Assembly (NCBI GenBank): GCA_016699575.1 | Contig: CP064979.1 | Location: 400,824 to 464,823, forward strand | DNA from: Flavobacteriales bacterium | Lineage (GTDB): Bacteria; Bacteroidota; Bacteroidia; Flavobacteriales_F; PHOS-HE28 | Direction: 5' to 3' | DNA: 64,000 nt | Shown here: piece after piece, positions 7,819 through 64,000 of the stretch | How positions within the stretch are numbered: the first letter of the stretch is position 1 | Layout of the letters: every line of letters starts with the position of its first letter | Made by a program: the position numbers and the translations under genes | Notes under the pieces: generated by a model | Database searches by the model: none | Told to the model about the DNA's origin: nothing | What the model saw: the letters and a program-made list of their open reading frames with translations, nothing else

Positions 7819-7882
7819 TCAGTTCAGTCCAGCGCGTTCAGTCCAGCGCGTTCAGTCCAGCGCGTTCAGTCCAGCGCGTTCA
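7819..7882. repeat. tandem repeat, 14 bp unit (TCAGTCCAGCGCGT) x about 4.3 copies
   Basis: Perfect head-to-tail copies are visible in the sequence at 7824-7879, with partial copies at both ends. They lie in the intergenic region upstream of the CDS at 7935. Confidence 0.85.
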
Positions 7883-12861: not shown

Positions 12862-12930
12862 AAAGCTGGAAGTTGGAATAGCGAGCGCACCGACTTTCAG
12901 CTTTCCACTTTCTCTTTTCAGCTTTCGTTC
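12862..12930 (+). terminator. hairpin plus T-rich tract after lpd
   Basis: AAGTGGAAAGCTG ... CAGCTTTCCACTT is a 13 bp stem with a loop of about 25 nt, followed by TTCTCTTTTCAGCTTTCG. Confidence 0.4.
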
Positions 12931-38056: not shown

Positions 38057-38150
38057 TCACCACAGAGGCACAGAGGACACCGAGAAGAACAAGATGAACA
38101 CCGTTGCTCATCAATCGCATTCCTCCGTGCCCTCTGTGCCTCTGTGGTGA
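38057..38150 (+). promoter_or_regulatory. 20 bp perfect inverted repeat (long hairpin) in the fadB leader, enclosing an 18-codon ORF
   Basis: TCACCACAGAGGCACAGAGG ... CCTCTGTGCCTCTGTGGTGA are exact reverse complements with a 54 nt loop. The loop holds ATG...TGA encoding MNTVAHQSHSSVPSVPLW. Confidence 0.6.
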
Positions 38151-38165
38151 AGCATTCACACACAC

Positions 38166-40544
38166 ATGAGCAAACGAAACATCCGCAAAGTCGCCGTGCT
38201 CGGCAGCGGCGTCATGGGCAGCCGCATTGCCTGCCACTTCGCGAACACCGGCACCGAAGTGCTGCTGCTCGACATTCCAGCCAAGGAAGGTCCGCGCAAC
38301 AAGATCGTGGACGACGCACTCGCCGCCGCGATCAAGAGCAGTCCGGCGCCCCTGTACGATGCACGCTTCGCCAAGCGCATCAGCACCGGCAACTTCGACG
38401 ACGACCTGCCCAAGATCAAGGACTGCGACTGGATCATCGAGGTCGTGATCGAGCGGCTCGACATCAAGCAGCAACTGCTGGAGAAGGTGGAGAAGCACCG
38501 TACACCGGGCACGCTCATCACCACCAACACCAGCGGCATCCCGATCCACGCCATCAGCGCGGGCCGAAGCGACGACTTCCGCAGGCACTTCTGCGGCACG
38601 CACTTCTTCAACCCGCCGCGCTACCTGCCGCTGCTGGAGCTGATCCCCGGTCCGGACACCGACCCCGCGGTGCTCGCCTTCCTGGAGGACTACGGCCAGC
38701 GCATCCTTGGCAAGGTCACGGTGATGGCCAAGGACACGCCCGCCTTCGTGGCCAACCGCATCGGCGTGTTCGGCATCATGGACGTGTTCCACCTCGTCAC
38801 CGACATGGGCCTTACGGTGGAGGAAGTGGACCGCCTCACCGGCCCCGTGATCGGCCACCCGAAGAGCGCCACCTTCCGCACCGCCGACGTGGTGGGCCTC
38901 GACACGCTGGTGAAAGTCGCGCAGGGCGTGAAGGACAACTGCCCGCACGACGAGCGCAACAGCCTCTTCAGCATTCCGGAGTACCTGCAGCAGATGGTGG
39001 AGAAGAACATGCTCGGCAGCAAGACCGGCAAGGGCTTCTTCTTCAAGGACCGCAACTCACCCAAGGGCGAGATCCTCTCCCTCGACCTGAAGACGCTGGA
39101 GTACAAGCCACAGGTGAAGCCCAAGTTCGCCACGCTGGACGCGGCGAAAAAGGTGGATGACCTGCGCGAGCGCCTCAAACTGGTGTACAACGGCACCGAC
39201 AAGGCCGGCGAATTCTACCGCCGTTCGTTCCAGGCGATGTTCGCATACGTGAGCCACCGCATCCCCGAGATCAGCGACGAGCTGTACAAGATCGACGACG
39301 GCATGCGCGCCGGCTTCGGCTGGGAGGCGGGTCCGTTCGAGACCTGGGACGCCATCGGAGTGCAACAAGTGAAAGATGAAATAGGAAAGCTGAAAGCTGA
39401 AAGTGGAAATGCGCTGACCATCGCGCCATGGGTGGATGAGATGCTTGCGGCTGGTCATACTTCGTTCTACAAAGTGGAGCAGGGCCAACGCCTTTACTAC
39501 GATGTCGCGAGCAAGAGCTACAAGCCGGTGCCACGCGCGGAAGGCTTGATCGTTCTCAACGAATTGCCAGAAAGCAGCATCGTGTGGAAGAACAGCGCCG
39601 CCACCGTGCGTCACCTCAGCGATGGCATCCTGAGCGTGAGCTGGACGAGCAAGATGAACACCATCGGCGCGGAGGTGATCCAGGGCCTCAACAAAGCCAT
39701 CGACCTCGCCGAGCAGGGCTACAAAGGCCTGGTGGTCTACAACGACGGCGCCAACTTCAGCGCGGGCGCCAACGTGGGCATGATCTTCATGATGGCCGTG
39801 GAGCAGGAGTACGACGACCTGGAGATGGCCGTGCGCACCTTCCAGAACACCATGATGCGCATGCGCTACAGCAGCATCCCCGTGGTGGCGGCCCCGCACC
39901 AACTGTGCCTGGGCGGCGGCACCGAGCTCTGCCTGCACGCGGACAAGGTGGTGGCGCACGCCGAGACCTACATGGGCCTGGTGGAATTCGGCGTGGGCGT
40001 GATCCCCGGCGGCGGCGGCACCAAGGAATTCGCCCTGCGCCTCGCCGACGAGCTGAAGGAGGGCGACATCCGCATCAACGCCATGCGCGAGCGCTTCCTC
40101 ACCATCGGCCAGGCCAAGGTGGCCACCAGCGGGCACGAGGCTTTCACGTTAGGCTACTTGCGTCGCGGCCAGGACGAGGTCATTGTCAGCCGCGCCCACC
40201 AGCTGGCCTACGCCAAGGCCTGCGCGCTGGAGCTGTGGAACAAGGGCTACACCAAGCCCGCACCGCGTAAGGACATCAAGGTGCTCGGCCAGGAAGGCCT
40301 CGGCATCGTGTACGTGGGCGCCAACAGCATGCTCAGCGGCAACTACATCAGCCAGCACGATGCGCTGATCAGCGAGAAGCTGGGCTATGTGCTATGCGGG
40401 GGTGACCTGAGCGAGGCTACGGAGGTCTCCGAGCAATACCTGCTGGACCTGGAGCGGAAAGCCTTCGTGGAGCTGTGTATGCAGCGGAAGACGCTCGAGA
40501 GACTTCAGTCGATCATTACTACGGGGAAAGTGTTGCGGAATTGA
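38166..40544 (+). CDS. fadB: bifunctional 3-hydroxyacyl-CoA dehydrogenase / enoyl-CoA hydratase (HCDH N-terminal, ECH C-terminal)
   Basis: N-terminal KVAVLGSGVMGSRIA Rossmann motif and HFFNPP. C-terminal crotonase fold VAAPHQLCLGGGTELCLHAD. About 792 aa. Confidence 0.9.
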   Translation: MSKRNIRKVAVLGSGVMGSRIACHFANTGTEVLLLDIPAKEGPRNKIVDDALAAAIKSSPAPLYDARFAKRISTGNFDDDLPKIKDCDWIIEVVIERLDIKQQLLEKVEKHRTPGTLITTNTSGIPIHAISAGRSDDFRRHFCGTHFFNPPRYLPLLELIPGPDTDPAVLAFLEDYGQRILGKVTVMAKDTPAFVANRIGVFGIMDVFHLVTDMGLTVEEVDRLTGPVIGHPKSATFRTADVVGLDTLVKVAQGVKDNCPHDERNSLFSIPEYLQQMVEKNMLGSKTGKGFFFKDRNSPKGEILSLDLKTLEYKPQVKPKFATLDAAKKVDDLRERLKLVYNGTDKAGEFYRRSFQAMFAYVSHRIPEISDELYKIDDGMRAGFGWEAGPFETWDAIGVQQVKDEIGKLKAESGNALTIAPWVDEMLAAGHTSFYKVEQGQRLYYDVASKSYKPVPRAEGLIVLNELPESSIVWKNSAATVRHLSDGILSVSWTSKMNTIGAEVIQGLNKAIDLAEQGYKGLVVYNDGANFSAGANVGMIFMMAVEQEYDDLEMAVRTFQNTMMRMRYSSIPVVAAPHQLCLGGGTELCLHADKVVAHAETYMGLVEFGVGVIPGGGGTKEFALRLADELKEGDIRINAMRERFLTIGQAKVATSGHEAFTLGYLRRGQDEVIVSRAHQLAYAKACALELWNKGYTKPAPRKDIKVLGQEGLGIVYVGANSMLSGNYISQHDALISEKLGYVLCGGDLSEATEVSEQYLLDLERKAFVELCMQRKTLERLQSIITTGKVLRN

Positions 40545-40600
40545 ACCGACAAAACGACGATCCCGTGTCACACGCGTTCAGCTATAAGCTCGCCAAGATG

Positions 40601-41059
40601 AAAGGTGGTCTTGGTCACTATGGTGAGATCACAGTGGTGGTTGAAGCTAGACTTGCGGATGAGCCGACTATTGTAGAGGCATACAGCGGAACAGGATGGG
40701 AAAGGCAAGGATATGCGCACACTATACCGGACAAGGGTTTCGATGATTGGAAATCGGCGATCCGAATGGGCATCGAATATGCTCTTCGTCGCTTGGAGGA
40801 ACAGAGCATCCGCGTTACAGTGAAAGAAGCCACTGGCTTGATCACTGACACGAACGCGACAATACTTGCCTATGCAGCGTCAAGAGCCCTCTTGGAGAAT
40901 CTTCCCAACCTGGAATCTCAGACGGAAAAGGACCGATTCGAGCAGCTTGTTTTCAGCAGTTTCAACTATGAAGACAGCGCCCAATTGGACCTGGAGCAGT
41001 TCCAGTTAATAGGCCAACTCAGGCCGAAGTCACCATATAGGGTTCAGGCAAATGGCTAA
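40601..41059 (+). CDS. hypothetical protein (island gene A)
   Basis: 152 aa from the MKGGLGHYGE Met. Local GC is about 50% against a host figure above 60%. No motif recognised. An alternative start at 40475 would overlap fadB. Confidence 0.4.
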   Translation, partial: KGGLGHYGEITVVVEARLADEPTIVEAYSGTGWERQGYAHTIPDKGFDDWKSAIRMGIEYALRRLEEQSIRVTVKEATGLITDTNATILAYAASRALLENLPNLESQTEKDRFEQLVFSSFNYEDSAQLDLEQFQLIGQLRPKSPYRVQANG

Positions 41060-41086
41060 GCATAGCCAGCAATATCATCTCATCGG

Positions 41087-41235
41087 TTGGGGCGTGCCGG
41101 CTCGCCCTTCGGCTCCGCAGAGCCGCGCTCAGGGTCTCGCCGTCGCGCTTGGAGTTCAGCCCGGGCTCGGACCCGGGCCTACAAGTCCTCGCGCGGATTA
41201 CCGCGCTGTGGGCTTTCCGCTGCAATCGCTCACGC
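41087..41235. repeat. intergenic repeat element, copy A (TTGGGGCGTGCC...hairpin...CGCGGATTACCGCG...GGCTTTCCGCTG)
   Basis: Shares a 12-mer and a roughly 60 nt 3' module with copy B at 46639-46740. The ATTA-loop hairpin shows compensatory changes between the two copies. Confidence 0.55.
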
Positions 41236-41239
41236 ATGA

Positions 41240-41488
41240 GTGCAAGCACGTGAACCTATGATTGACTTCGACCTAAATCGAACATGGGTCTCATTCACAT
41301 GTCCATCGTGTGCCTATATGGATGAAGTTCAGGTCGTGGATGTACGCTCAGAGAAGACCATATTCTGCCACAACTGTAAGTCCTCGATCCGACTCGTCGA
41401 CGGTGATGCTTCCGTGCACACCGGAGTTCGCGACATCAACGACTCCATGACTGACCTATTGAATACGTTCAAAAAGCTCGGACGCTGA
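41240..41488 (+). CDS. small C4 zinc-ribbon protein (island gene B)
   Basis: CPSC...(21 aa)...CHNC. 82 aa. The stop overlaps the next start (ATGA). Confidence 0.45.
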   Translation: MQAREPMIDFDLNRTWVSFTCPSCAYMDEVQVVDVRSEKTIFCHNCKSSIRLVDGDASVHTGVRDINDSMTDLLNTFKKLGR

Positions 41489-42450
41489 TGTACTACAATC
41501 ACAATCTCAGAACCAACCTACAGGAGTGGAAGAATCGCGTTCAGCGCGCTTCAACAAGCAACTTCGGATACCAGATAGACCTGTTGCTGAAGCACATTCA
41601 AGAGGAGCCTGCACTCAATGCGCTCATGGTTGAAGCCGCTCAGCAATTCCCGCATGAGGACGAGCACTTGCAGGAACGAATAAATCTCTATGACTCCAGT
41701 CAGCACATTCCATTCTCTGGACAAGCGGATCGCGCAGCTTTTTCCCAAGCTCTCTTGCATTGGATCATTAGGGAACATGGTGTCGAGTCCGTACCGCATA
41801 TGACCTTATTCATAGGAAGAAAGGATGTCCTCGGAGGAATAGTAGAAGACTGCGTGTCTCCAATTCTGGACTACTTACATGACCGCTTAGACAAGTCTAG
41901 TTCCACGTTGTACCTGCTTGAGAAATACAAGCGTCGGACGGAGTGGTTCATGAAGGACTCTCTCAGAACACGATATCTGTTGGCTGAGAAAGAATACGAG
42001 AAAATCTTCGAGGATGACCTGCGACTATTCCTGTTTGACCAAGGAATCGACTATCCCTTCTCAACCCCTAGTAGTCCTTCTGGCAGAGCTGACGTTGTCG
42101 GCGCTATTGACACCTCGGATCCGCTTGTTGTCGAAATCAAGATTTTCGACCGAAGCAAGAGCTATGGGAAGGATCGTGTACGAAGTGGTCTTGCTCAGGT
42201 CATGAAGTACGTAAATGACTACAACAAGGACTTTGGCTACCTAGTCATCTTCAATGCCGACAACGCTGAATTGCACTTTCAACTCGAAGACATCAGCAAG
42301 GCCTTCCCACCGATGCTTGTCTATAACAACAAGCGATACTTCTTCATAGTGGTCAACATCGGTGAGCATGTTGCAGCTAGCAAAGTCGGCAAGCAAGAGG
42401 TGATTGAACTGTCAACAGATTTCCTGGTATCCAAAGCAGAACTCGCGTGA
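41488..42450 (+). CDS. hypothetical protein with a C-terminal PD-(D/E)xK nuclease-like motif (island gene C)
   Basis: GRADVVGAIDTSDPLVVEIKIFD...GLAQVMKY...GYLVIFN fits a D...(D/E)xK restriction-endonuclease-fold core. The N-terminal roughly 190 aa has no recognisable motif. Low GC. Confidence 0.45.
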   Translation: MYYNHNLRTNLQEWKNRVQRASTSNFGYQIDLLLKHIQEEPALNALMVEAAQQFPHEDEHLQERINLYDSSQHIPFSGQADRAAFSQALLHWIIREHGVESVPHMTLFIGRKDVLGGIVEDCVSPILDYLHDRLDKSSSTLYLLEKYKRRTEWFMKDSLRTRYLLAEKEYEKIFEDDLRLFLFDQGIDYPFSTPSSPSGRADVVGAIDTSDPLVVEIKIFDRSKSYGKDRVRSGLAQVMKYVNDYNKDFGYLVIFNADNAELHFQLEDISKAFPPMLVYNNKRYFFIVVNIGEHVAASKVGKQEVIELSTDFLVSKAELA

Positions 42451-42601
42451 GGGAGAGCAGCGGAAAGCTCGGAGGCCTGTCATCAGGCCGAGGACCTGCC
42501 TGTCCGGCAGGCAGGCTTGCAGCGGATAGCCCGACGGCGCTGCTCTTGTGCGCCGGCACGCCCAACACTTCGACAAGTTCGGTGTGACGACCACCAAGCC
42601 A

Positions 42602-43444
42602 ATGAAAAAGCGCGCGATCACCGTCAAAGGCATCCCCGTCACCGTTGTGGAGCGGAACGAGCAGGACTACATCTCGCTCACCGACATGGTGCAGGGCTTC
42701 GAGGGCGGCAGCGCGCTGATCGAGCAATGGTTGCGCAACAAGGACACGGTGCTCTTCCTGGGTGTGTGGGAGCAGCTGAACAACCCGGCGTTCAATTCCC
42801 TCGAATTCGAGGGAATTGGGAACGCGGCCGGCCGCAACAGTTTCTACCTGTCGGTGAAGAAGTGGATCGACGCCACCGGTGCGATCGGGCTGCACGCGCG
42901 CGCTGGCGGACATGGCGGCACGTATGCGCACAAGGACATCGCCTTCGAGTTCGGTTCGTGGTTGAGCCCAGAGTTCAAGCTGTACCTGATCAAGGAGTTC
43001 CAACGGCTGAAGGAAGCGGAGGCCAGCAACCAGTCGCTGGAATGGAACCTGCAGCGCACTCTGGCCAAGGTCAACTACCGGATCCACACGGATGCCATCA
43101 AGGAGCATTTGATCCCACCGGTGCTCAGCAAGGCGCGCATCAGCGGGGTGTACGCTACCGAAGCCGACCTGCTGAACGTAGCCCTGTTCGGCCTCACCGC
43201 TTCCGAGTGGAAACGGGCCAACCCATCACTTGCCGGCAACATGCGCGACCGCGCCACACTGGAACAACTGGTCGTGCTTTCCAACCTGGAGAGCATCAAC
43301 GCCGTGATGATCCAGCAGGGCCTCGGATCAGCGGAGCGCCTGCAACAACTGAACACGACCGCCATCGGACAGATGAGATCGCTCACCGCAGGTCGCGCAG
43401 CGGACAAGCTGCTGGCGGCCGGCAAGAAGAAACCAAAGAACTAA
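42602..43444 (+). CDS. KilA-N domain protein
   Basis: KRAITVKGIPVTVVERNEQDYISLTDMVQG is a typical KilA-N N-terminal DNA-binding domain. The C-terminal half is of unknown function. Confidence 0.65.
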   Translation: MKKRAITVKGIPVTVVERNEQDYISLTDMVQGFEGGSALIEQWLRNKDTVLFLGVWEQLNNPAFNSLEFEGIGNAAGRNSFYLSVKKWIDATGAIGLHARAGGHGGTYAHKDIAFEFGSWLSPEFKLYLIKEFQRLKEAEASNQSLEWNLQRTLAKVNYRIHTDAIKEHLIPPVLSKARISGVYATEADLLNVALFGLTASEWKRANPSLAGNMRDRATLEQLVVLSNLESINAVMIQQGLGSAERLQQLNTTAIGQMRSLTAGRAADKLLAAGKKKPKN

Positions 43445-43450
43445 GACCCC

Positions 43451-43618
43451 ATGAACGCATACATCATCGCCGGTTTCCGCAGCGCAGTGGGCAAAGCGCC
43501 CTGCCATCGGCAGGCAGGCGCACGCAAATTCCGTTTCACGCGTCCGGATGACCTGGCCGCGCACGTGGTGAACCACCTGGTGGGTTCGGCGCCCCATAAA
43601 CCACACCCAACCACCTGA
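43451..43618 (+). pseudogene. truncated duplicate of the thiolase 5' end (first roughly 45 codons, then a frameshifted tail)
   Basis: ATGAACGCATACAT...GTGGTGAACCACCTGGTGGG is about 90% identical to 45441-45565. It contains a 22 bp insertion and terminates after 55 codons. Confidence 0.7.
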
Positions 43619-43741: not shown

Positions 43742-44374
43742 GTGAAACGCCCCTCGGTAGAAAAGCTGGTACTGGCGCGCATGGAAGAGCGTGGCCGTGG
43801 CAGCGTGCTCACCCCCAAGGATTTCTGCGACCTGGGTGGGCGCAGCGCGGTGGCCGTGGCCTTGCACCGGCTGGTGAAGAAGGAGGTGGTGCGCAACATC
43901 GGCAACGGCTTGTACTTCTTCCCGGAGCTGGGCGGGATGTTCGGGGAGTCGATAGCGGGTACCTACGAGATCGTCGCCGCCATTGCCAAGCGCGATGGGA
44001 TCACGATACGCGAGACACATGCTTACGCGTCCAACATCACGGGCATAAGCACCCAGGTGCCTACGCGTGTTGCCTTTCAAACCGATGGTCGTTCCCGAAA
44101 GATCCGTTTGAAGCCCATGATACCGGGCGGACGTGCGAATGAGATCATTCTCCGACGCACCAGTTCGCGCTACATGCGGGCGCGCACCGAGGTGGGCTAC
44201 TTGGTGATCCAGGGCCTGCGTGACTACGGTCGAAAGAACATCGGTAAGGAGGAATATGCCGAGCTGCTCAGACGGCTGCCCCCTCACGGAAAAGAGGATC
44301 TGAAAAAGGACCTGGACATCGCCCCGGTCTGGATCGCGGACATCATGCGTCGATTGATCGCTGAAGCACCATGA
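43742..44374 (+). CDS. abiEi: AbiEi-family antitoxin / transcriptional regulator (type IV toxin-antitoxin)
   Basis: N-terminal wHTH-like region, about 200 aa, 4 bp overlap with the downstream nucleotidyltransferase gene. GTG start (alternative ATG at 43781). Confidence 0.65.
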   Translation: MKRPSVEKLVLARMEERGRGSVLTPKDFCDLGGRSAVAVALHRLVKKEVVRNIGNGLYFFPELGGMFGESIAGTYEIVAAIAKRDGITIRETHAYASNITGISTQVPTRVAFQTDGRSRKIRLKPMIPGGRANEIILRRTSSRYMRARTEVGYLVIQGLRDYGRKNIGKEEYAELLRRLPPHGKEDLKKDLDIAPVWIADIMRRLIAEAP

Positions 44375-45444
44375 GCGCGCATCCATTCCTCCATTTACCG
44401 GAAGCACGGCAACGTTCATTGCTTATTCGTGCCAACAATCTACTCCCCCTCGCGATATCCAGTATCGAGAAGGATGTCTACGTCTGCCTCTTTCTGGAGA
44501 AAGTGATGGCACTTCCTGGCATCGGCGAGCATCTCACGTTCAAAGGCGGCACGTCACTCTCCAAGGCGCACAAGATCACGGACCGTTTCTCCGAGGATGT
44601 GGATCTGGTAGTTGATCGCCATGTGCTTGGTCTCGCGGAAGATGGCATCCCCGGCGGACATCATTCTCCGAGGCAACAGAAGGAGCGCGCAAAGAAGATC
44701 GCGAAAGCCTGTCGAACATGGGCTGCAAATACACTCATTCCCGCCTTACGCACTTCCCTCGCAACTGAACTGCGCAATGGCTCATGGAGCCTCGACCTGA
44801 ACGCCGACAGCGATAACCATGAGACAGTGCTCTCATTCGGCTATCCCAAGCTTTTCGTACCGGACGGCGAGTACATCCTGGACCATGTGAAGGTGGACCT
44901 CGTGGCGAAGGCCGATGCTTGGCCAAGCACAACGATACCTGTGTGCGCTTACGTACATGAGCTCTTCACGGAAGAGTTCGGCGATGGTTCATTCCCAGTC
45001 CGCACACTGGAAGCTGAACGCACGTTGATCGAAAAAGCACTGTTGCTTCACGAAGTTCTGGTCCAGCGTCCGGATGGTCCACGTCGTCGATTGGCGCGGC
45101 ACTACTTCGACCTGTACTTCCTCCATCGCGCCGGTGCAACAACAAAAGCCATCGCCCGAGCTGACCTGTATCCTGCTGTCGTTCAACAGCGCAGCATCTA
45201 CTACCGCTATCCCGGAGTGGACTACGATGCGCTATTGACAGAAGGCTTCAGCATCATTCCGCAAGGCGCGGCACGTGCTGCTTGGCATAGCGACTACGAC
45301 GGCATGCAGAGCGATATGTTCTATGGAAACGTGCCAGCCTTCGACGACATCATGACCGCCATGGAACAGTTCCAAGCAACGTTCCGCGAGCATCTTCAAC
45401 AAACGACATCAGCGCCGAGCAGTCGGCAACACGAACACCCATGA
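44371..45444 (+). CDS. abiEii: AbiEii/AbiGii-family nucleotidyltransferase toxin (DUF1814)
   Basis: KGGTSLSKAHKITDRFSEDVDLVV matches the GGT(A/S)L...R.SED(I/V)D pol-beta-like nucleotidyltransferase core of AbiEii. Confidence 0.75.
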   Translation: MSAHPFLHLPEARQRSLLIRANNLLPLAISSIEKDVYVCLFLEKVMALPGIGEHLTFKGGTSLSKAHKITDRFSEDVDLVVDRHVLGLAEDGIPGGHHSPRQQKERAKKIAKACRTWAANTLIPALRTSLATELRNGSWSLDLNADSDNHETVLSFGYPKLFVPDGEYILDHVKVDLVAKADAWPSTTIPVCAYVHELFTEEFGDGSFPVRTLEAERTLIEKALLLHEVLVQRPDGPRRRLARHYFDLYFLHRAGATTKAIARADLYPAVVQQRSIYYRYPGVDYDALLTEGFSIIPQGAARAAWHSDYDGMQSDMFYGNVPAFDDIMTAMEQFQATFREHLQQTTSAPSSRQHEHP

Positions 45445-46616
45445 ACGCATACATAATCTCCGGTTTCCGTTCCGCCGTAGGCAAAGCGCCCCGCGGCAAA
45501 TTCCGTTTCACGCGTCCGGATGACCTGGCCGCGCACGTGGTGAACCACCTGGTGGGCTCGGTGCCCGGGCTGGAGCGCGACCGCATCGACGATGTGATCG
45601 TGGGCAACGCCACGCCCGAGGCCGAGCAGGGCCTGAACATCGGCCGCATGATCAGCCTGATGGGCCTGAACACCGACAAGGTGCCGGGCATGACGGTGAA
45701 CCGCTACTGCAGCAGCGGCAGCGAGACCATCGCCATTGCCGCGGCCAAGATCCACAGCGGGCAGGCCGACGTGATCGTGGCGGGCGGCGTGGAGTGCATG
45801 AGCCCGATCCCCTTCGGCGGCTGGCGCATCGTGCCGAACGCCAAGGTGGGCAAGGCGCAGCCCACGTACTACTGGGGCATGGGCCTCACCGCCGAGGCCG
45901 TGGCGCGCGACTTCAAGGTGAGCCGGGAGGACCAGGACGCCTTCAGCCTGCGCAGCCACGAGAAGGCGCTGGCCGCGATCAGCTCCGGCAAGTTCAAAGA
46001 CGAGATCGTGCCCTACACCGTGGAGCGCGTGTACCTGGACGCGAAGGAGAAGCGCCAAGTGGAGCAATACGTGGTGGACACCGATGAAGGTCCGCGCGCG
46101 AGCACCCTGGAGGCGCTGGCTAAGCTGAAGCCCGTGTTCGACGCGAAGGGCAGCGTGACGGCAGGCAACGCCAGCCAGACGAGCGATGGCGCGGCCTTCG
46201 TGCTGGTAGTGAGCGAGCGCATGCTGAAGCAGCTCAATGTGAAGCCGATCGCGCGCCTGCTCTCCTACCATGTGGCCGGGGTGGAGCCGCGCATCATGGG
46301 CATCGGTCCGGTGGCGGCAGTGCCGAAGGCGCTGGAGAAGGCCGGGCTGAAGCTGAGCGACATCGGGCTGTTCGAGCTGAACGAGGCCTTCGCGAGCCAA
46401 TCGCTGGCGGTGGTGCGCGAGCTGGGCATCGACCCGGAGATCGTGAACGTGAACGGCGGCGCGATCGCGCTGGGGCATCCGTTGGGGTGCACGGGCGCGA
46501 AGCTGAGCGTGCAGTTGTTCAATGAGATGCGGCGGCGGAAGCAGAAGTATGGGGTGGTGACGATGTGCGTGGGGACGGGGCAGGGGGCGGCGAGTGTGTT
46601 TGAGTTGTTGAATTGA
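45441..46616 (+). CDS. fadA: acetyl-CoA C-acyltransferase (thiolase II)
   Basis: NRYCSSGSETIA (active-site Cys), ...GNASQTSDGAA..., and C-terminal NVNGGAIALGHPLGCTGA. Confidence 0.9.
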   Translation: MNAYIISGFRSAVGKAPRGKFRFTRPDDLAAHVVNHLVGSVPGLERDRIDDVIVGNATPEAEQGLNIGRMISLMGLNTDKVPGMTVNRYCSSGSETIAIAAAKIHSGQADVIVAGGVECMSPIPFGGWRIVPNAKVGKAQPTYYWGMGLTAEAVARDFKVSREDQDAFSLRSHEKALAAISSGKFKDEIVPYTVERVYLDAKEKRQVEQYVVDTDEGPRASTLEALAKLKPVFDAKGSVTAGNASQTSDGAAFVLVVSERMLKQLNVKPIARLLSYHVAGVEPRIMGIGPVAAVPKALEKAGLKLSDIGLFELNEAFASQSLAVVRELGIDPEIVNVNGGAIALGHPLGCTGAKLSVQLFNEMRRRKQKYGVVTMCVGTGQGAASVFELLN

Positions 46617-46638: not shown

Positions 46639-46740
46639 TTGGGGCGTGCCCCCGCCTCAAATGCAGGCGGGGTCCGGCTTTCCGCTGTACTCCTCGCACG
46701 GATTACCGTGCTGCGGGGTGCCGCTCCAATCCGTCACGCG
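46639..46740. repeat. intergenic repeat element, copy B, with a terminator-like hairpin
   Basis: TTGGGGCGTGCC + CCCGCCT-CAAATGC-AGGCGGG hairpin + CGCACGGATTACCGTGCTG module, lying between convergent genes. Confidence 0.55.
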
Positions 46741-46766: not shown

Positions 46767-47573
46767 TTACTGCAAATTAGCAGCAGCGTTCATCAATTTC
46801 GCCTGAAGCTTCGAGAAACGGCCAAGTTGTTCAGCGGTAAGATTGCTACCAGCGTTCTGCAACTTCGACTGAAGTTCTGTCGCGTTCTCCATCATCGCTG
46901 GATATTCAGCGATTGCTGAAGCATCACCGTTCTTGGCGGCTTTCGCAAGTTTGATGTAGTCATCAACGTACTGCTCATAGCTCGTCAGAATGTCGTCCCA
47001 ATCTTCATCGCCCGTAAGAGCAATGTCACCACTCGACTCAGAATCGCCGGAAGATGTAATTGGACTTGTGTCCTGCTCTTCCATTGACGATGACAACTTC
47101 ACCTTCTTGGCCTTACCCGGATTCTTTTCCAGTTCGGTATTTCCACTAAGTGAAAATTCCAACCATGCGGTCTCATTTGCTCCGAGTGAAAGAGCCTTCT
47201 CGAATGGCTCATAGCCATACTTCTCCAAGTTCGTAGCCAATGGCAAATCTCCTTCTCCCAACATATCAGCAGCGATGCACCACTGGTACTTCTTCCCAGC
47301 CCCAACGCCACATACCTGTGCATCATTGGCATCGAATGGCAGAGGCTCGTCCGTTCGCTTTATTTCCACTAGGAGCTTGGTGCCGAAGATCTCTTCACTA
47401 ACCTTAAGCACTGCCTTTGTCACGATATAGCTCTCCGACAACGTTCCAGACATTGTTTGCTCGACTTCGAGCGGAAAGTCCCCGGCTTGCTTTTTATCGG
47501 GATCGGAACTTCCTCCACAGGAAACAGCAAGGGCGGAAACAAGAAGGGCGGCGGACGGCAGCAAGAACTTCAT
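46767..47573 (-). CDS. lipoprotein, hypothetical (lower GC)
   Basis: MKFLLPSAALLVSALAVSCGG lipobox. Acidic Ser/Asp/Glu-rich middle. About 50% GC. Confidence 0.5.
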   Translation of the reverse strand: MKFLLPSAALLVSALAVSCGGSSDPDKKQAGDFPLEVEQTMSGTLSESYIVTKAVLKVSEEIFGTKLLVEIKRTDEPLPFDANDAQVCGVGAGKKYQWCIAADMLGEGDLPLATNLEKYGYEPFEKALSLGANETAWLEFSLSGNTELEKNPGKAKKVKLSSSMEEQDTSPITSSGDSESSGDIALTGDEDWDDILTSYEQYVDDYIKLAKAAKNGDASAIAEYPAMMENATELQSKLQNAGSNLTAEQLGRFSKLQAKLMNAAANLQ

Positions 47574-47741
47574 GGATGGATTGTTAACTGGTTCGCACGA
47601 AAATATGGGAAGTCGTTCACACAATCACTACAAGGGCACAGACGTAGCTTTGAGAAGCTTGCAAACCACCAGTGAATCACGGCAATCCATCCGTACGTCG
47701 TCCAAAGCGCGTTGACGAAGAAGCCATCACTCGTTGAGACC

Positions 47742-60131: not shown

Positions 60132-63100
60132 ATGCAGAAGATGCTACGAGCACTGTTGGGGGGGGCCGCACTATTGGTACTTGGATCGGCACATGGGCAA
60201 TGCACGGCCAATGCCGGTCCGCCCAACGTGAACATCTGCGCCGGGGGGCCGCAGCAACTGAACGGCTCGGCCAACGGTGGCCAGCCGCCGTACACCTACC
60301 AATGGGCTCCTGCGGCCGGACTGAGCAACCCGAACATTGCCAACCCCATCTGCACCGCCACCACCACGACCACCTATACGCTCACCGTAACCGATGACAA
60401 CGGTGTGCAATGCACCGATGACATCACGGTGACCGTACTTCCCACGGCTGACGCGACGCTCACCAGCAGCAATGCGCTCTTCACGGTGTTCAACGGCGTG
60501 CCCACGTTCTACAAGTGCTCCGCGAACCCCAGCTCTTTGTACTTCTTCGACTTCGGTGGATCGGCCACCGCAGGTGCATCGCATACCATCAACTGGGGTG
60601 ACGGCTCGCCCAACTACACGGCGACAGGGAACACTTGGCCCACACAATCGCACACCTACAACCAAGGGATCTACACGATCACGTACACGATCACGCAGGG
60701 CAACGGCTGCAACGACACGCAGACGTACAGCGTGTTCCTGGGAACGAACCCGGCCGGTGCCTTGGTGAACCCCGGCAGTACGAACGGCTGCGGTCCTCTC
60801 ACGCTCACCTTCCCCATCGTTGGATGGACCACCAACACGCCCGGCACCATCTACACGGTGACGTTCAACGACGGCACGCCACCGATCGTGTACAGCCATC
60901 CGCCCCCGGCGTCCATCACACACACCTTCGCCATCGGTAGTTGCGGCACCACCAGCACCGACGGCATCAACACCTACACGAACAGCTTCTCGGCCAACAT
61001 CCTCATCGAGAACCCGTGCGGAACAAGCGGCAGTACCGTGCTGCCCATCACGGTGAGCCTTGCCGGTCAGAGCGGCTTCACCATCAGCCCGAACGACACG
61101 GCCTGCGTGGCGACCACCGTGACGTTCACGAGCACGAGCACGGGCAACGAGATACAAGGGGCCGTGTGCGACCTCACCCCTGCCCTGCTCTGGAGCATCG
61201 CACCCGCCGCAGGCTGGACGATCAGCAGCGGATCGCTCGGCAATAACAATGGCTTCATTGGTCCCACCTACGATCCCAGCAGCTGGCTCACCGGCAGCCA
61301 ATCGCTCGGTATCAACTTCAACACGCCGGGCACGTACGCCGTAACGCTCGTCACGGGCAACTCATGCGGCGGTGACACACTTGTGCAGTCCGTCTGCATC
61401 GAAAGCCCGCCGGTGCCAGCGTTCACGATGAACCCGGTGCTGGGCTGCGCACCCTTGCTGAGCCTTACGGACAACACCAGCACCAGCCCGAACAGTTGCT
61501 TGACCCGCTATCAGTGGAACGCTGTCTTCAATGGTGCACCGTGCGGTGGCGCTGGTACATGGAACTACGCGGGCGGCACCTCGGCCACCAGCTTCGAACC
61601 GCAGTTCAATTTCACCAGTCCGGGAAACTACACGGTGACGCTGCAAGCGATCAACTCGTGCGGCACCTTCCCTGTGAACCAGTCCGTCACCGTTGGTTCG
61701 CCGCCGCAAGTGGTGCTGAACCCGTTGCCGCAGATCTGCGAAGGCCAGAGCGTGACACCGTCCGCGACGTTCACGCCGTGCGGCAACCCCATCACCAGCT
61801 ACAACTGGACGATGACAGGCGGCAATCCGGCCACCGCAAACACGCAGAACCCCGGTAGCATCACCTACAACACGGCTGGCAGCTTCACGGTGACCGCGAG
61901 CGCAACCAACTCGTGCGGCACCGCCAGTGACAGCGAACCGATCACCGTCATCGATACGCCACCCGCGCCCACGGTGCTGCCAGCAGCGATCACCTTGTGC
62001 GCAGGCCAGACCTTGAACCTGAATGCCACCACCGTGCCCGGCGCCACATTGAGTTGGACAGGTCCCGGAGGATGGAGCGCGAGCGGTGGCACGCCGAGCA
62101 TCGCGAACATCACCGTCGGCCAGGGAGGCATTTACACTGTCACCTCAACATTGAACGGGTGCACCGGACCGAGCAGCACGGTATCCGTGACCGTGAACAC
62201 CGCGCCTGCGATCAACATCGCCGTGAGCGACCCCGTGATCTGCGTGGGCGATGCGGTGACGTTGACGGCCAGCGGCAGCAGCAACTACACCTGGACGGCC
62301 AATGGTGCACCCGCCGGGAGCGGCACCACCATCAACGTTTCCCCAACGGTGAACACGACCTATGTGCTCACGGCGACGCCGGGGGGCGGCTGCCCCGGCA
62401 CGGCGAGCACCTTGGTGCAAGTGAACCCCTTGCCCGCAGTGAACGCCGGACCCGACGTAACCCTTTGCGATCAACCCATCGGTGTTCAGCTGGTTGGTTT
62501 CTCGCCTGCCGGTGGTACTTGGAGCGGTAGTCCGAACGTGACTTCCGGCGGCCTCTTCACCCCGAACGGTGCGGGCACGTTCAACCTTACCTACACCTAC
62601 ACCGATGCCAACGGCTGCGTGAACAGCGATCAGATCACCGTGACGGTGAACCCGCTGGGCGCTCCCGCGAACGCGGGTCCGGATGAAACGCTCTGCGTTG
62701 GTGATCCTGCGTTGCAACTGCCGCTCACACCGGGCGGTGGCACTTGGAGCGGCAGTCCGAACGTGACGGCCGGCGGTCTCTTCACGCCGATCACAGCAGG
62801 CAGCTTCGTGCTTACCTACACCGTTGGTGCTGGCACCTGCCAAACGACCGATGCCATGACGGTAACCGTGAACGCGCTGCCCGTGGTGAACGCAGGCCTC
62901 GATCAGACCGCATGCACGAACGGAGCGACGATCACCTTGAACGGAACGCCAGTTGGTGGCACCTGGACCGGACCGGGCCTAACAGGCAGCACATGGGATC
63001 CCGCAACCGCTCCGCTCGGCGCGAACAACCTCACCTACACATACTCCAACGCGAACGGTTGCACGGCGAGCGATGCGATCATGATCACTCTGTTCGCCGC

Positions 63101-64000
63101 GCCGGTAGTTGATGCAGCAGGGCCTTGGACCTTGTGCGATCAGCCGGGCAGCACGCAACTCACGGGTGCGTTGCCGGTGGGCGGCACCTGGAGCGGTCCC
63201 TTCATCACACTTGCTGGCAGTTTCGGCGGTAGTGGCGTGGGCTCGTTCACCGTGTACTACAACTACACGGATGCGAACGGGTGCAGTGGCATCGACAGCA
63301 CGGTGATCGATGTGGTGCCCGTGCAGAACCCCGCGAACGCCGGTCCTGACGAACACGTTTGCGAGGGCGATCCTCCTTTCGGCTTGGCCAGCATGCCTCC
63401 CGGGGGCACATGGAGCGGCAGCATCTACGTGGCCGCAAATGGAACGTTCACGCCGAGCGTTGCGGGAACGTACGTCCTCACCTACTCCGTCGGCAACGGG
63501 AGTTGTTTGACAAGCGACCAGATGGTGGTGACGGTGGACCCTCCACCGACAGTGACCGCGGGCAATCCTGCGAGCTTCTGCGTTGATGATGCGGCCACGC
63601 AGTTGAACGGTACACCGGCAGGCGGCACTTGGAGCGGCACCGGGGTCGCGCCCGGCGGAAGTTTCGACCCCGCCCTTGCGGGAGTTGGTCAACACACGCT
63701 CACCTACAGCTACACCTCGCCGATCGGCTGTTTCAACAGCGCCACCGTGGTATTGACCGTTAACCCGCTGCCCGTAGTGGATGCGGGTCCTCCGATCGTC
63801 TTCTGCGACCAGCCCTTCCCGCAGCAGATCACCTCCGGCACACCGGTGGGCGGCACGTGGTCAGGACCGAACGTCACCGCAGGCGGTTCGTTCACCCCGA
63901 ACGGCGTCGGTACGTTCTCGCTCACCTACACCTACACCGACGCGAACGGTTGCACCAACAGCGACAACCTGCAGGTGGATGTTGTGCCGATCGTGAACCC
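60132..64000 (+). CDS. giant cell-surface adhesin with tandem PKD-like and SprB-type repeat domains; 3' end lies outside the window
   Basis: Signal peptide MQKMLRALLGGAALLVLGSAHGQ. More than 12 tandem modules of about 75-80 aa of the form GPD..C......G.P.GGTWSG......FTP...G.F.LTYTYTDANGC..SD...V.V.P.P. PKD-like AINSCG/ATNSCG motifs. The frame is open to the window end. It does not appear in the ORF track because it has no stop inside the window. Confidence 0.75.
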   Translation, partial: MQKMLRALLGGAALLVLGSAHGQCTANAGPPNVNICAGGPQQLNGSANGGQPPYTYQWAPAAGLSNPNIANPICTATTTTTYTLTVTDDNGVQCTDDITVTVLPTADATLTSSNALFTVFNGVPTFYKCSANPSSLYFFDFGGSATAGASHTINWGDGSPNYTATGNTWPTQSHTYNQGIYTITYTITQGNGCNDTQTYSVFLGTNPAGALVNPGSTNGCGPLTLTFPIVGWTTNTPGTIYTVTFNDGTPPIVYSHPPPASITHTFAIGSCGTTSTDGINTYTNSFSANILIENPCGTSGSTVLPITVSLAGQSGFTISPNDTACVATTVTFTSTSTGNEIQGAVCDLTPALLWSIAPAAGWTISSGSLGNNNGFIGPTYDPSSWLTGSQSLGINFNTPGTYAVTLVTGNSCGGDTLVQSVCIESPPVPAFTMNPVLGCAPLLSLTDNTSTSPNSCLTRYQWNAVFNGAPCGGAGTWNYAGGTSATSFEPQFNFTSPGNYTVTLQAINSCGTFPVNQSVTVGSPPQVVLNPLPQICEGQSVTPSATFTPCGNPITSYNWTMTGGNPATANTQNPGSITYNTAGSFTVTASATNSCGTASDSEPITVIDTPPAPTVLPAAITLCAGQTLNLNATTVPGATLSWTGPGGWSASGGTPSIANITVGQGGIYTVTSTLNGCTGPSSTVSVTVNTAPAINIAVSDPVICVGDAVTLTASGSSNYTWTANGAPAGSGTTINVSPTVNTTYVLTATPGGGCPGTASTLVQVNPLPAVNAGPDVTLCDQPIGVQLVGFSPAGGTWSGSPNVTSGGLFTPNGAGTFNLTYTYTDANGCVNSDQITVTVNPLGAPANAGPDETLCVGDPALQLPLTPGGGTWSGSPNVTAGGLFTPITAGSFVLTYTVGAGTCQTTDAMTVTVNALPVVNAGLDQTACTNGATITLNGTPVGGTWTGPGLTGSTWDPATAPLGANNLTYTYSNANGCTASDAIMITLFAAPVVDAAGPWTLCDQPGSTQLTGALPVGGTWSGPFITLAGSFGGSGVGSFTVYYNYTDANGCSGIDSTVIDVVPVQNPANAGPDEHVCEGDPPFGLASMPPGGTWSGSIYVAANGTFTPSVAGTYVLTYSVGNGSCLTSDQMVVTVDPPPTVTAGNPASFCVDDAATQLNGTPAGGTWSGTGVAPGGSFDPALAGVGQHTLTYSYTSPIGCFNSATVVLTVNPLPVVDAGPPIVFCDQPFPQQITSGTPVGGTWSGPNVTAGGSFTPNGVGTFSLTYTYTDANGCTNSDNLQVDVVPIVN

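Follow-up and report, generated by a model that had tools for sequence, protein, structure and literature searches.

What are the short structured repeats at the fadB-thiolase locus of a Flavobacteriales bacterium, and why do they stand where variable low-GC DNA begins? We addressed this question in a stretch of 64,000 nt (GenBank assembly GCA_016699575.1, contig CP064979.1, positions 400,824 to 464,823 of the forward strand; hereafter the window). A model that saw the letters alone (the sequence-only reading) had described two copies of a repeat there, A and B, as a small family with a compensatory-mutation hairpin that would fit a repetitive extragenic palindrome (REP), a miniature inverted-repeat transposable element (MITE) or a small RNA (sRNA). 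The feature is confirmed as real, and it belongs to a known family that this reading had not recognized: copies A and B, together with a third copy, C, are divergent GC-rich members of Flavo-1 (Rfam RF01705), an assignment that is well supported. Flavo-1 is an RNA motif described by Weinberg et al. (2010; PMC2864571) and has stood in Rfam since 2010 as an sRNA (entry type: Gene; sRNA), its function unexplained. On balance, we favor reading the elements as dispersed structured repeats that mark recombination boundaries, akin to REPs and bacterial interspersed mosaic elements (BIMEs), over a stand-alone sRNA gene.

The features that had been claimed for copies A and B hold. Both open with the 12-mer TTGGGGCGTGCC, followed in each by a GC-rich hairpin; the window has exactly two occurrences of this 12-mer, where shuffles predict 0.05, and none of 100 shuffles contained it two or more times. 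Both also contain GGCTTTCCGCTG and terminate in ...AATC..TCACGC. The stem of the hairpin with an ATTA loop reads CGCGCGG/CCGCGCTG in copy A and CGCACGG/CCGTGCTG in copy B, a G-C to A-T double change giving one compensated pair, and relatives add the compensated versions GGCCGG/CCGGCC, GCCCTG/CAGGGC and GCGCTG/CAGCGC. The count of two copies did not survive: a repeat search found copy C, inverted with respect to copy A and 1.2 kb from it, its tail pointing toward the genes between the two (the cargo) and its head toward a KilA-N gene, and this third copy is key to the local architecture. The window thus holds three different compensated cores, GTCGGGC...CCCTC in C, GTCCGGC...CCGTC in B and GTCGCGC...TCGCTC in A, which pair as GGGC/CCCT, CGGC/CCGT and GCGC/TCGC, respectively. 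Copy A is a variant with GGAGTTCA and an extra hairpin in place of part of box 1, a module shared by three of the loci fetched from other genomes (L053, L128 and L132). A covariance model, one of the checks suggested with the sequence-only reading, was built; trained without copy A, it detected that copy in the window at 28.4 bits (E = 1e-5), and it gave copies B and C, both in its training set, 76.8 and 70 bits.

A default Rfam scan of the window, at gathering thresholds, returned no match. Run in E-value mode, the scan exposed Flavo-1 as the only meaningful Rfam match for copies B (32.8 bits, E 4e-4) and C (20.1 bits); copy A had no Flavo-1 match in the window scan, E-value mode included. 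Both alignments span positions 1-76 of the 76-nt model and run on the strand opposite to that of the sequence-only reading. The gathering score of 42 bits was not reached by any window copy. Five AT-rich Flavobacterium/Flavobacteriaceae loci fetched by a pattern of head and box 1 scored 50.9-60.2 bits over the same coordinates, above the cut-off. Because these AT-rich copies come from the same pattern and pass, the shortfall in the window is a matter of divergence inside a single family: a high GC content and longer or extra hairpins keep the window copies under the cut-off. The elements also have the anatomy of Flavo-1, that is, a long irregular hairpin with facing AGCGGAA(A/U)AGCC boxes (AGCGGAAAGCC and AGCGGAUAGCC on Rfam's strand), symmetric internal loops and covariation, with helices that RNAalifold recovered independently.

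We then asked how far the family extends, scanning one genome per species with the pattern GGGCGTGCC-N10-40-GGCTNTCCGCTG. At least 120 loci were returned, and 66 of the 120 listed carry a complete element; the incomplete ones are matches inside genes of other phyla that lack the tail. By record title, the hosts are mostly Flavobacteriales, Chitinophagaceae, Saprospiraceae, Sphingobacteriaceae, Cytophagales and Bacteroidales, joined by two metagenome-assembled genomes (MAGs) of Spirochaetes and a few MAGs labeled as other phyla. The full elements thereby match the taxonomic range of Flavo-1 (Bacteroidota, mainly Flavobacteria, with few Spirochaetes), and, among the fetched loci, the nearest relatives of the window are Flavobacteriales MAGs. 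This phylum-wide spread overturns the description as a small family. Copies are also dense: three lie in the 64-kb window, L077 has as many as five in 8 kb, Bacteroidota loci totaling ~0.5 Mb that had each been fetched for another copy yielded about 12 more, and the MAG JAKAOA01 has four with the same P2 hairpin. The element occurs on Bacteroides conjugative plasmids as well, among them p5482 (68.7 bits). It is essentially absent from phages, with no BLAST match in 50,697 phage records and, among 2.9 M viral contigs, nine pattern matches of which only two are true elements; a phage association was dropped on these near-empty searches. A literature search by the element's sequence string returned nothing relevant. 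As a separate observation, a 'hypothetical protein', BT_RS24285, is annotated over the element on p5482 of B. thetaiotaomicron (L121 3950-4300, NC_004703.1), and the element probably causes spurious open reading frame (ORF) calls, with GFPLQSLTR- or GLSAASPR-like peptides, in many Bacteroidota annotations.

To describe the fold, we aligned 62 family members from across Bacteroidota and folded them with RNAalifold. Elements are ~80-170 nt long and have the consensus TTT-GGGCGTGCC-(hairpin P2)-GTCGGGCTATCCGCTGCAAGTCC-(distal hairpin)-GGGCTTTCCGCTnCTATCCCTCACGC-GRA. The predicted fold is three-way. A closing stem, GCGUG/CACGC, is invariant and hence uninformative; the P2 hairpin is free in sequence; and a long irregular stem sets the near-identical boxes GGGCUAUCCGCUGCAAG and GGGCUUUCCGCUNCUAUCCC face to face beneath a variable distal hairpin. 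Pairing is kept in 96.9% of cells compared to 82.4% in shuffles, and the covariation score of 0.357 (shuffles, 0.094) was attained in 0 of 500 shuffles. Controls in which partners were slid by 1-3 columns paired only 28-58% of cells. Covarying pairs occur even within the 'conserved' boxes, one with G-C 46, C-G 8 and A-U 6, another with A-U 37, U-A 18 and G-C 3. With these values the fold is well supported, and the earlier claim of selection on structure is borne out. The Rfam model covers the long stem and ends within or just before P2, omitting part or all of this hairpin in most copies. The head GGGCGTGCC, the most invariant block of all, its pairing with the tail and the resulting three-way junction all lie outside it. 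Drawn from ~130 related copies, this gives a fuller anatomy of the family and calls the annotated strand into question. In 19 predicted pairs, 55 wobble cells fall on the strand of the sequence-only reading and 3 on the other; in the internal loop, seven G-U and nine U-G cells favor the former, and seven C-A cells are wobble-compatible only on Rfam's strand. The total is 71 to 10, of which 38 cells come from a single site and the cells are not independent events. These counts are moderate evidence that the strand of the sequence-only reading is the one that folds, in conflict with Rfam.

Next, we examined where the elements sit. The window was aligned by BLAST to the fetched loci, which yielded orthologous fadB-thiolase regions, and 80 more loci came from scanning metagenomes with the thiolase protein; among the latter, elements found by the covariance model are confined to the clade with a thiolase at least 84% identical. 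The recurrent layout is fadB - variable - E1(+) - cargo - E2(-) - (KilA-N) - thiolase - B(+) - variable, with heads toward the core genes, on both flanks of the thiolase, and tails (CACGC-GRARTG) toward the cargo (Table 1). As had been claimed, copy A lies within a low-GC insert and copy B between the thiolase, 23 nt past its stop, and a convergent gene, 27 nt from that gene's stop. The GC content drops from ~0.65 to ~0.48-0.51 in the segments adjoining the elements, and the elements do border variable low-GC DNA, in line with the suggestion that they sit near island boundaries.

Table 1. Features of the fadB-thiolase locus, in window coordinates
Feature	Position	Strand	Description
fadB-like 3-hydroxyacyl-CoA dehydrogenase / enoyl-CoA hydratase	38166-40544	+	Core gene, left border of the hotspot
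Variable segment 1	40545-41086	+	Between fadB-like stop and copy A; ORF ending at 41059; GC 0.51
Copy A (E1)	41087-41235	+	CG-type core GTCGCGC...ATCGCTC; head GGGGCGTGCC, long P2 hairpin, degenerate box 1 (GCGCTTGGAGTTCA plus extra hairpin GCCCGGG/CCCGGGC), ATTA-loop hairpin, box 2 GGGCTTTCCGCTGCAATCGCTCACGC
Cargo between A and C	41240-42450	+	82-aa Zn-ribbon-like ORF (41240-41488) and 320-aa nuclease-like ORF (41488-42450); GC 0.48
Copy C (E2)	42445-42567	-	G-type core GTCGGGCTAT...CTCTCCCTCACGC
KilA-N domain protein	42602-43444	+	KilA-N, 1.5e-19; starts 35 nt past the head of copy C
Duplicated thiolase 5' fragment	43447-43594	+	148 nt, of which 71 nt are 97% identical to 45496-45566
AbiEi	43742-44374	+	Abortive-infection / toxin-antitoxin pair with AbiEii
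AbiEii	44371-45444	+	Stop overlaps thiolase start
Thiolase	45441-46616	+	Core gene
Copy B	46639-46740	+	C-type core GTCCGGC...ATCCGTC; head 46641-46650, P2 hairpin 46650-46672, box 1 46673-46690, ATTA-loop hairpin 46691-46718, box 2 and tail 46719-46739
Variable segment 3: DUF6591 gene	46767-47624	-	GC ~0.49; directly past the tail of copy B

The pair E1(+)...E2(-) is kept in L053, L017, L124, L128, L130, L137, L138 and L149. Between the two copies, the DNA of different genomes is unrelated and in every case of low GC content (0.44-0.55). It encodes RHS-repeat lipoproteins in L053, L149 and a second pair of L137 that lies downstream of the thiolase, a HerA/DUF87 ATPase in L017, AbiEi/AbiEii in L124, PD-Lambda-5 A and B in L130, and small orphan ORFs in L128, L133 and L137. 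Similarity between genomes ends within a few nucleotides past CACGC-GRARTG, on both sides. Cargo ORFs almost fill the space from tail to tail, starting ~5-50 nt after the E1 tail and stopping ~0-45 nt before the E2 tail; the reverse complement of the tail, GCGTGA, supplies the stop codon TGA in L017 and, for the 320-aa ORF, in the window. The start codon of the thiolase or the KilA-N gene follows 22-78 nt downstream of the E2 head. The pairs, with members 0.45-3.4 kb apart around genes, are heterotypic: a CG- or C-type copy on the left is joined to a G-type copy on the right in 10 of 11, the combination is CG-left/G-right in nine of the 11, and the left copy is never of G-type. Beyond this locus, a Saprospiraceae MAG (L077) has two independent pairs, each bracketing a single orphan gene, with genes for MazG, an aminotransferase and a deoxynucleoside kinase between the pairs. 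One relative, L003, has no elements in the hotspot and instead a single gene of the 23S rRNA-intervening-sequence (four-helix-bundle) type (reverse complement, ~690-1075; PF05635, E 3.7e-36).

Orthologous copies of the element persist across species, in L013/L075 and L110/L112 as well as in the thiolase clade. Over 100 nt, copy A matches its L053 orthologue at 98% identity (the fadB-like gene, 86%), the same 98 nt of copy B are identical at the orthologous site in L083, and the orthologue of copy C is kept in L137 along with the KilA-N start. In seven independent orthologous comparisons, the variable side was at the tail in five and at the head in one, with both sides conserved in one, so that a rule placing variable DNA always at the tail was rejected in favor of a trend, to which one pair (L064) runs contrary. 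No clean empty site or target duplication was found either; copy B is missing from L053, where, however, unrelated DNA lies downstream. The copies are mosaics. Depending on the genome, the slot after the thiolase holds a C-, CG- or G-like core, and the modules P2, core and distal hairpin (P4) occur in all combinations, which implies conversion or replacement among copies. Adjacent copies in direct orientation make up only ~2 of 11 roughly independent pairs, as expected if recombination between direct repeats deletes the intervening DNA. Duplicated thiolase ends accompany the inserts, at the 5' end in the window (43447-43594 vs 45439-45586) and at the 3' end in L124 (6694-6894), L122 (8644-8763), L128 (6301-6424) and L138 (8227-8411). 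Such duplications are a signature of homology-driven insertion; they suggest that cassettes bring a replacement gene end with them and integrate either through homology (Campbell-like) or by targeting gene ends.

Taken with the fold, this distribution led us to favor REP/BIME-like repeats at recombination boundaries. In this lineage, the stretch from the fadB-like gene to the thiolase gene is a defense-gene hotspot; copies stand fixed at its borders, and inverted pairs bracket repeatedly exchanged cargo. The junction and boxes may form a recognition surface for a conserved factor acting on the folded single strand, and the repeats would serve as recombination boundaries, or as portable homology, around accessory cassettes. 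Direct-orientation copies would be lost by deletion, leaving inverted pairs and solo copies. The placement at cargo borders is shown; the role there, whether as recombination boundary, portable homology or docking, we infer from one well-sampled hotspot and two pairs elsewhere. REPs and BIMEs are a closest analogy: they too are short, structured, multi-copy, mosaic intergenic repeats near gene ends, present in either orientation, and the inverted pairs of two different types recall BIMEs, which pair Y and Z REPs. REP/BIME elements are, in addition, linked to hot spots of recombination and insertion. The likeness has limits. At 80-170 nt with a three-way junction, the element is larger than a REP, which is a single imperfect palindrome; it has the head GGGCGTGCC and no GT[AG]G or CGTC tag; and its pairs enclose genes rather than lying tens of bp apart. 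REP systems possess REP-associated tyrosine (RAYT, TnpA-REP) transposases, and no RAYT was found in the window and 120 loci. Of the identities first proposed, the REP-like one is favored, and a strict MITE is not supported, with terminal complementarity of only 5 bp and no target-site duplication found.

Several observations weigh against this reading. No ORF with an HUH/Y1 motif was present in six-frame translations of the window and the 120 genome loci, and the REPs of the Bacteroidetes RAYT subclass 2.6 (supplementary table, PMC6006769) have other sequences, without any of the element's motifs; a RAYT link was dropped on these two grounds. The element's unpaired sequence is conserved phylum-wide, which is unusual for REPs and expected of a functional RNA. 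Folds of single sequences were only weakly better than shuffles (z -0.95 to -3.5), and the strand evidence is mixed, with the wobble majority set against the seven C-A cells. The pair in L064 brackets housekeeping genes, and the comparison of L012 with L022 puts the variable side at the head. Finally, one or two ancestral arrangements probably gave rise to most hotspot pairs, which leaves few independent cases behind the tails-toward-cargo rule.

The alternative that survives best is that the element acts as RNA, as an sRNA gene, as a cis-acting untranslated-region module bound by a conserved RNA-binding protein or RNase, or as a self-cleaving ribozyme; we regard this as unlikely. The element combines strong covariation with conserved unpaired nucleotides, in its junction and its internal loops, as functional RNAs do; the wobble asymmetry favors folding of one strand, and many copies lie within ~50 nt of stop codons. 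Genomic behavior speaks otherwise. Forty-six of the 74 copies examined sit cleanly between two called genes, and among these all four orientations relative to the flanking genes occur without bias (18, 14, 8 and 6). In the flanks, a short T-run precedes the head and purines follow the tail; they contain no Bacteroidota -33/-7 promoter motif and no conserved terminator, and no U-tract follows the structure on either strand. In the F. psychrophilum transcriptome (PMC9723704), some Flavo-1 matches coincide with 5' transcribed regions, but matches run sense, antisense or outside transcripts. Inverted pairs would moreover place opposite strands in any read-through transcript, and the strand that wobble favors is opposite to Rfam's. 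Hammerhead-like and other known ribozyme cores were considered and rejected, with no match in the Rfam scan. The sRNA proposed for copies A and B has Rfam's own filing in its favor, whereas orientations, flanks and transcriptome argue against a stand-alone gene. These three, together with the lack of duplication and of a recurrent neighboring protein, disfavor both a stand-alone sRNA gene and a classical MITE. The sRNA-gene typing of Flavo-1 in Rfam is likewise unsupported by the genomic distribution.

A second alternative gives the elements a more direct part in exchange: a recombinase encoded elsewhere would recognize the folded element and insert or swap promoterless cassettes between left (CG/C-type) and right (G-type) copies. 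The exact tail boundaries, which hold for at least eight unrelated cargos, fit this, as do cargo ORFs that fill the inter-tail space with a stop codon sometimes in the tail, the left/right asymmetry of the pairs and the co-orientation of the cargo with the fad operon. Homologues of the window's cargo at other loci, which lack the elements, point the same way. Across Bacteroidota, the 320-aa protein has 457 homologues (~50% identity), and in some of the source records these are called PD-(D/E)XK nuclease or restriction endonuclease; neither the 320-aa nor the 82-aa protein had a Pfam or PADLOC match. In three of four homologue loci (L202, L203, L204 and L205), the large gene directly follows a 73-74-aa gene, and these loci are defense islands with CBASS, Patatin, TIR, OLD/UvrD and AbiEii genes. 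The two proteins may constitute an uncharacterized two-gene defense system. None of the four loci has flanking elements, so the elements belong to the site and not to the cargo, which also speaks for the favored reading; an element that travels with its cargo was rejected on these four homologues.

Functionally, the closest analogy lies with the attC sites of integrons or with the intergenic repeats of rAID-1 clusters of Bacteroidales, which are integron-like arrays with repetitive intergenic sequences in the same phylum (Ross et al. 2019, 10.1101/471110). In both, as here, structure-constrained repeats border compact, low-GC, apparently promoterless accessory or defense genes, and sequence between the conserved parts varies with pairing kept. 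The rAID-1 repeats separate orphan immunity genes that lie downstream of a XerD-family recombinase. The element differs in having no R/L box (GTTRRRY) organization and no RYYYAAC box at its tail. There is also no integrase or XerD-like gene near the elements, and no recurrent neighbor protein other than orthologous housekeeping genes emerged from all-against-all BLASTP of the ORFs around 80 elements. Pair copies are inverted, whereas integron copies are direct, and most copies are solo, outside arrays and beside ordinary genes. Multi-gene cargos in L149 and L130 lack internal sites, the probable shared ancestry of the hotspot pairs leaves few independent events, and the thiolase-end duplications point to homologous recombination as a route of insertion. 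We accordingly give recombinase-driven capture little probability. The same holds for a broader version, in which Flavo-1-type elements would be docking sites for accessory genes throughout Bacteroidota, with the folded three-way junction recognized by a recombinase encoded elsewhere, inverted left and right copies defining a slot and promoterless defense cassettes inserted and exchanged exactly at the tails; this is a long shot, which if true would describe a system functionally comparable to integrons and differently built.

It is about equally improbable that the element is a classical non-autonomous transposon, a MITE that still jumps, with its position at island borders incidental. It is small, non-coding and multi-copy, forms lineage-specific subfamilies such as the four same-P2 copies of JAKAOA01, is present on conjugative plasmids and in many copies has a T-run beside the head. 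The termini, however, show no inverted repeat past the 5-bp GCGTG/CACGC, the flanks of 63 copies and eight pairs show no target-site duplication, and there is no linked transposase. Orthologous loci provided no clean filled/empty site pair, orthologous copies persist across species, and a core anciently conserved over the phylum with variable hairpins is the reverse of a young burst. As an observation apart, CCCTGAGCGGAGTCGAAGGGT stands ahead of the head in L053 (2940-2990), L017 (reverse complement, 2520-2570), L083 (3350-3395), L074 and L045. It looks like a degenerate element tail with the usual 3' flank (CCCTCACGC-GGAGTGCG), and such a tail-linker-head junction suggests past tandem copies or a joined-ends intermediate.

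Transcriptional punctuation, in which the element would be an outward promoter, insulator or terminator shielding the fad genes from inserted DNA, is very improbable: on the opposite strand, box 1 gives CTTG, and TGCATTTG or TGCTTTTG, each differing at one position from the -7 motif of Bacteroidota (TAnnTTTG), is often present in the P2 loop ~21 nt further downstream, and E2 heads do lie close before start codons, but genes past the head are not enriched in the orientation that such a promoter would serve (24 vs 22), P2 loops are not conserved in the family and the structure has no U-tract behind it. The outward promoter was rejected accordingly; a -33/-7-like arrangement is readable, and the gene-orientation statistics give it no general role.

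The REP/BIME-like reading has different consequences depending on whether the link to cargo borders is causal. If it is, the elements would explain how small defense cassettes dock in Bacteroidota without linked integrases, and they would offer a sequence handle for finding such hotspots. If it is not, Flavo-1 should still be re-described as a REP-like repeat, which is relevant to genome annotation.

Variable segment 1, whose ORF had no Pfam match, is 92.6% identical to L124 in a single alignment that also spans the fadB-like gene, and differs in L053 and L017. The KilA-N protein corresponds almost over its full length to the PADLOC candidate defense family PDC-S22 (E 2.6e-125), and its gene stands next to E2 in L137 as well. 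The position of the DUF6591 gene holds other DNA in L083 and L003, and synteny returns at ~47690. Just upstream of the fadB-like start, at 38057-38150, lies an inverted repeat with 28-nt arms that are 93% complementary, a 38-nt spacer and (CACAGAGG)x2; a related palindrome is present in L122, and the repeat may serve the fad operon as an operator or as a regulatory hairpin.

Other repeats were noted in passing. Pyrimidine-rich low-complexity runs (CTTTCAGCTTTC..., CACTTTT x5, CTTTCTG x2) occur in the window at 12893-12926 and 39370-39409; one lies inside the fadB-like ORF, and others are found at the 5' flanks of elements in L064, L067, L012 and L004. Four exact tandem copies of the 14-mer GTTCAGTCCAGCGC occupy an intergenic-looking stretch of the window at 7822-7877, and a sequence like it, GTTCAGTCCAGCG, comes after the tail of the element in L070 (1331-1343), a Spirochaetes locus. 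At 62400-64000, tandem domain repeats of ~222 bp (74 aa; …GGTWSG…LTYTYTDANGC…) belong to a large ORF that runs past the end of the window and are typical of Bacteroidota cell-surface or gliding-type repeat proteins.

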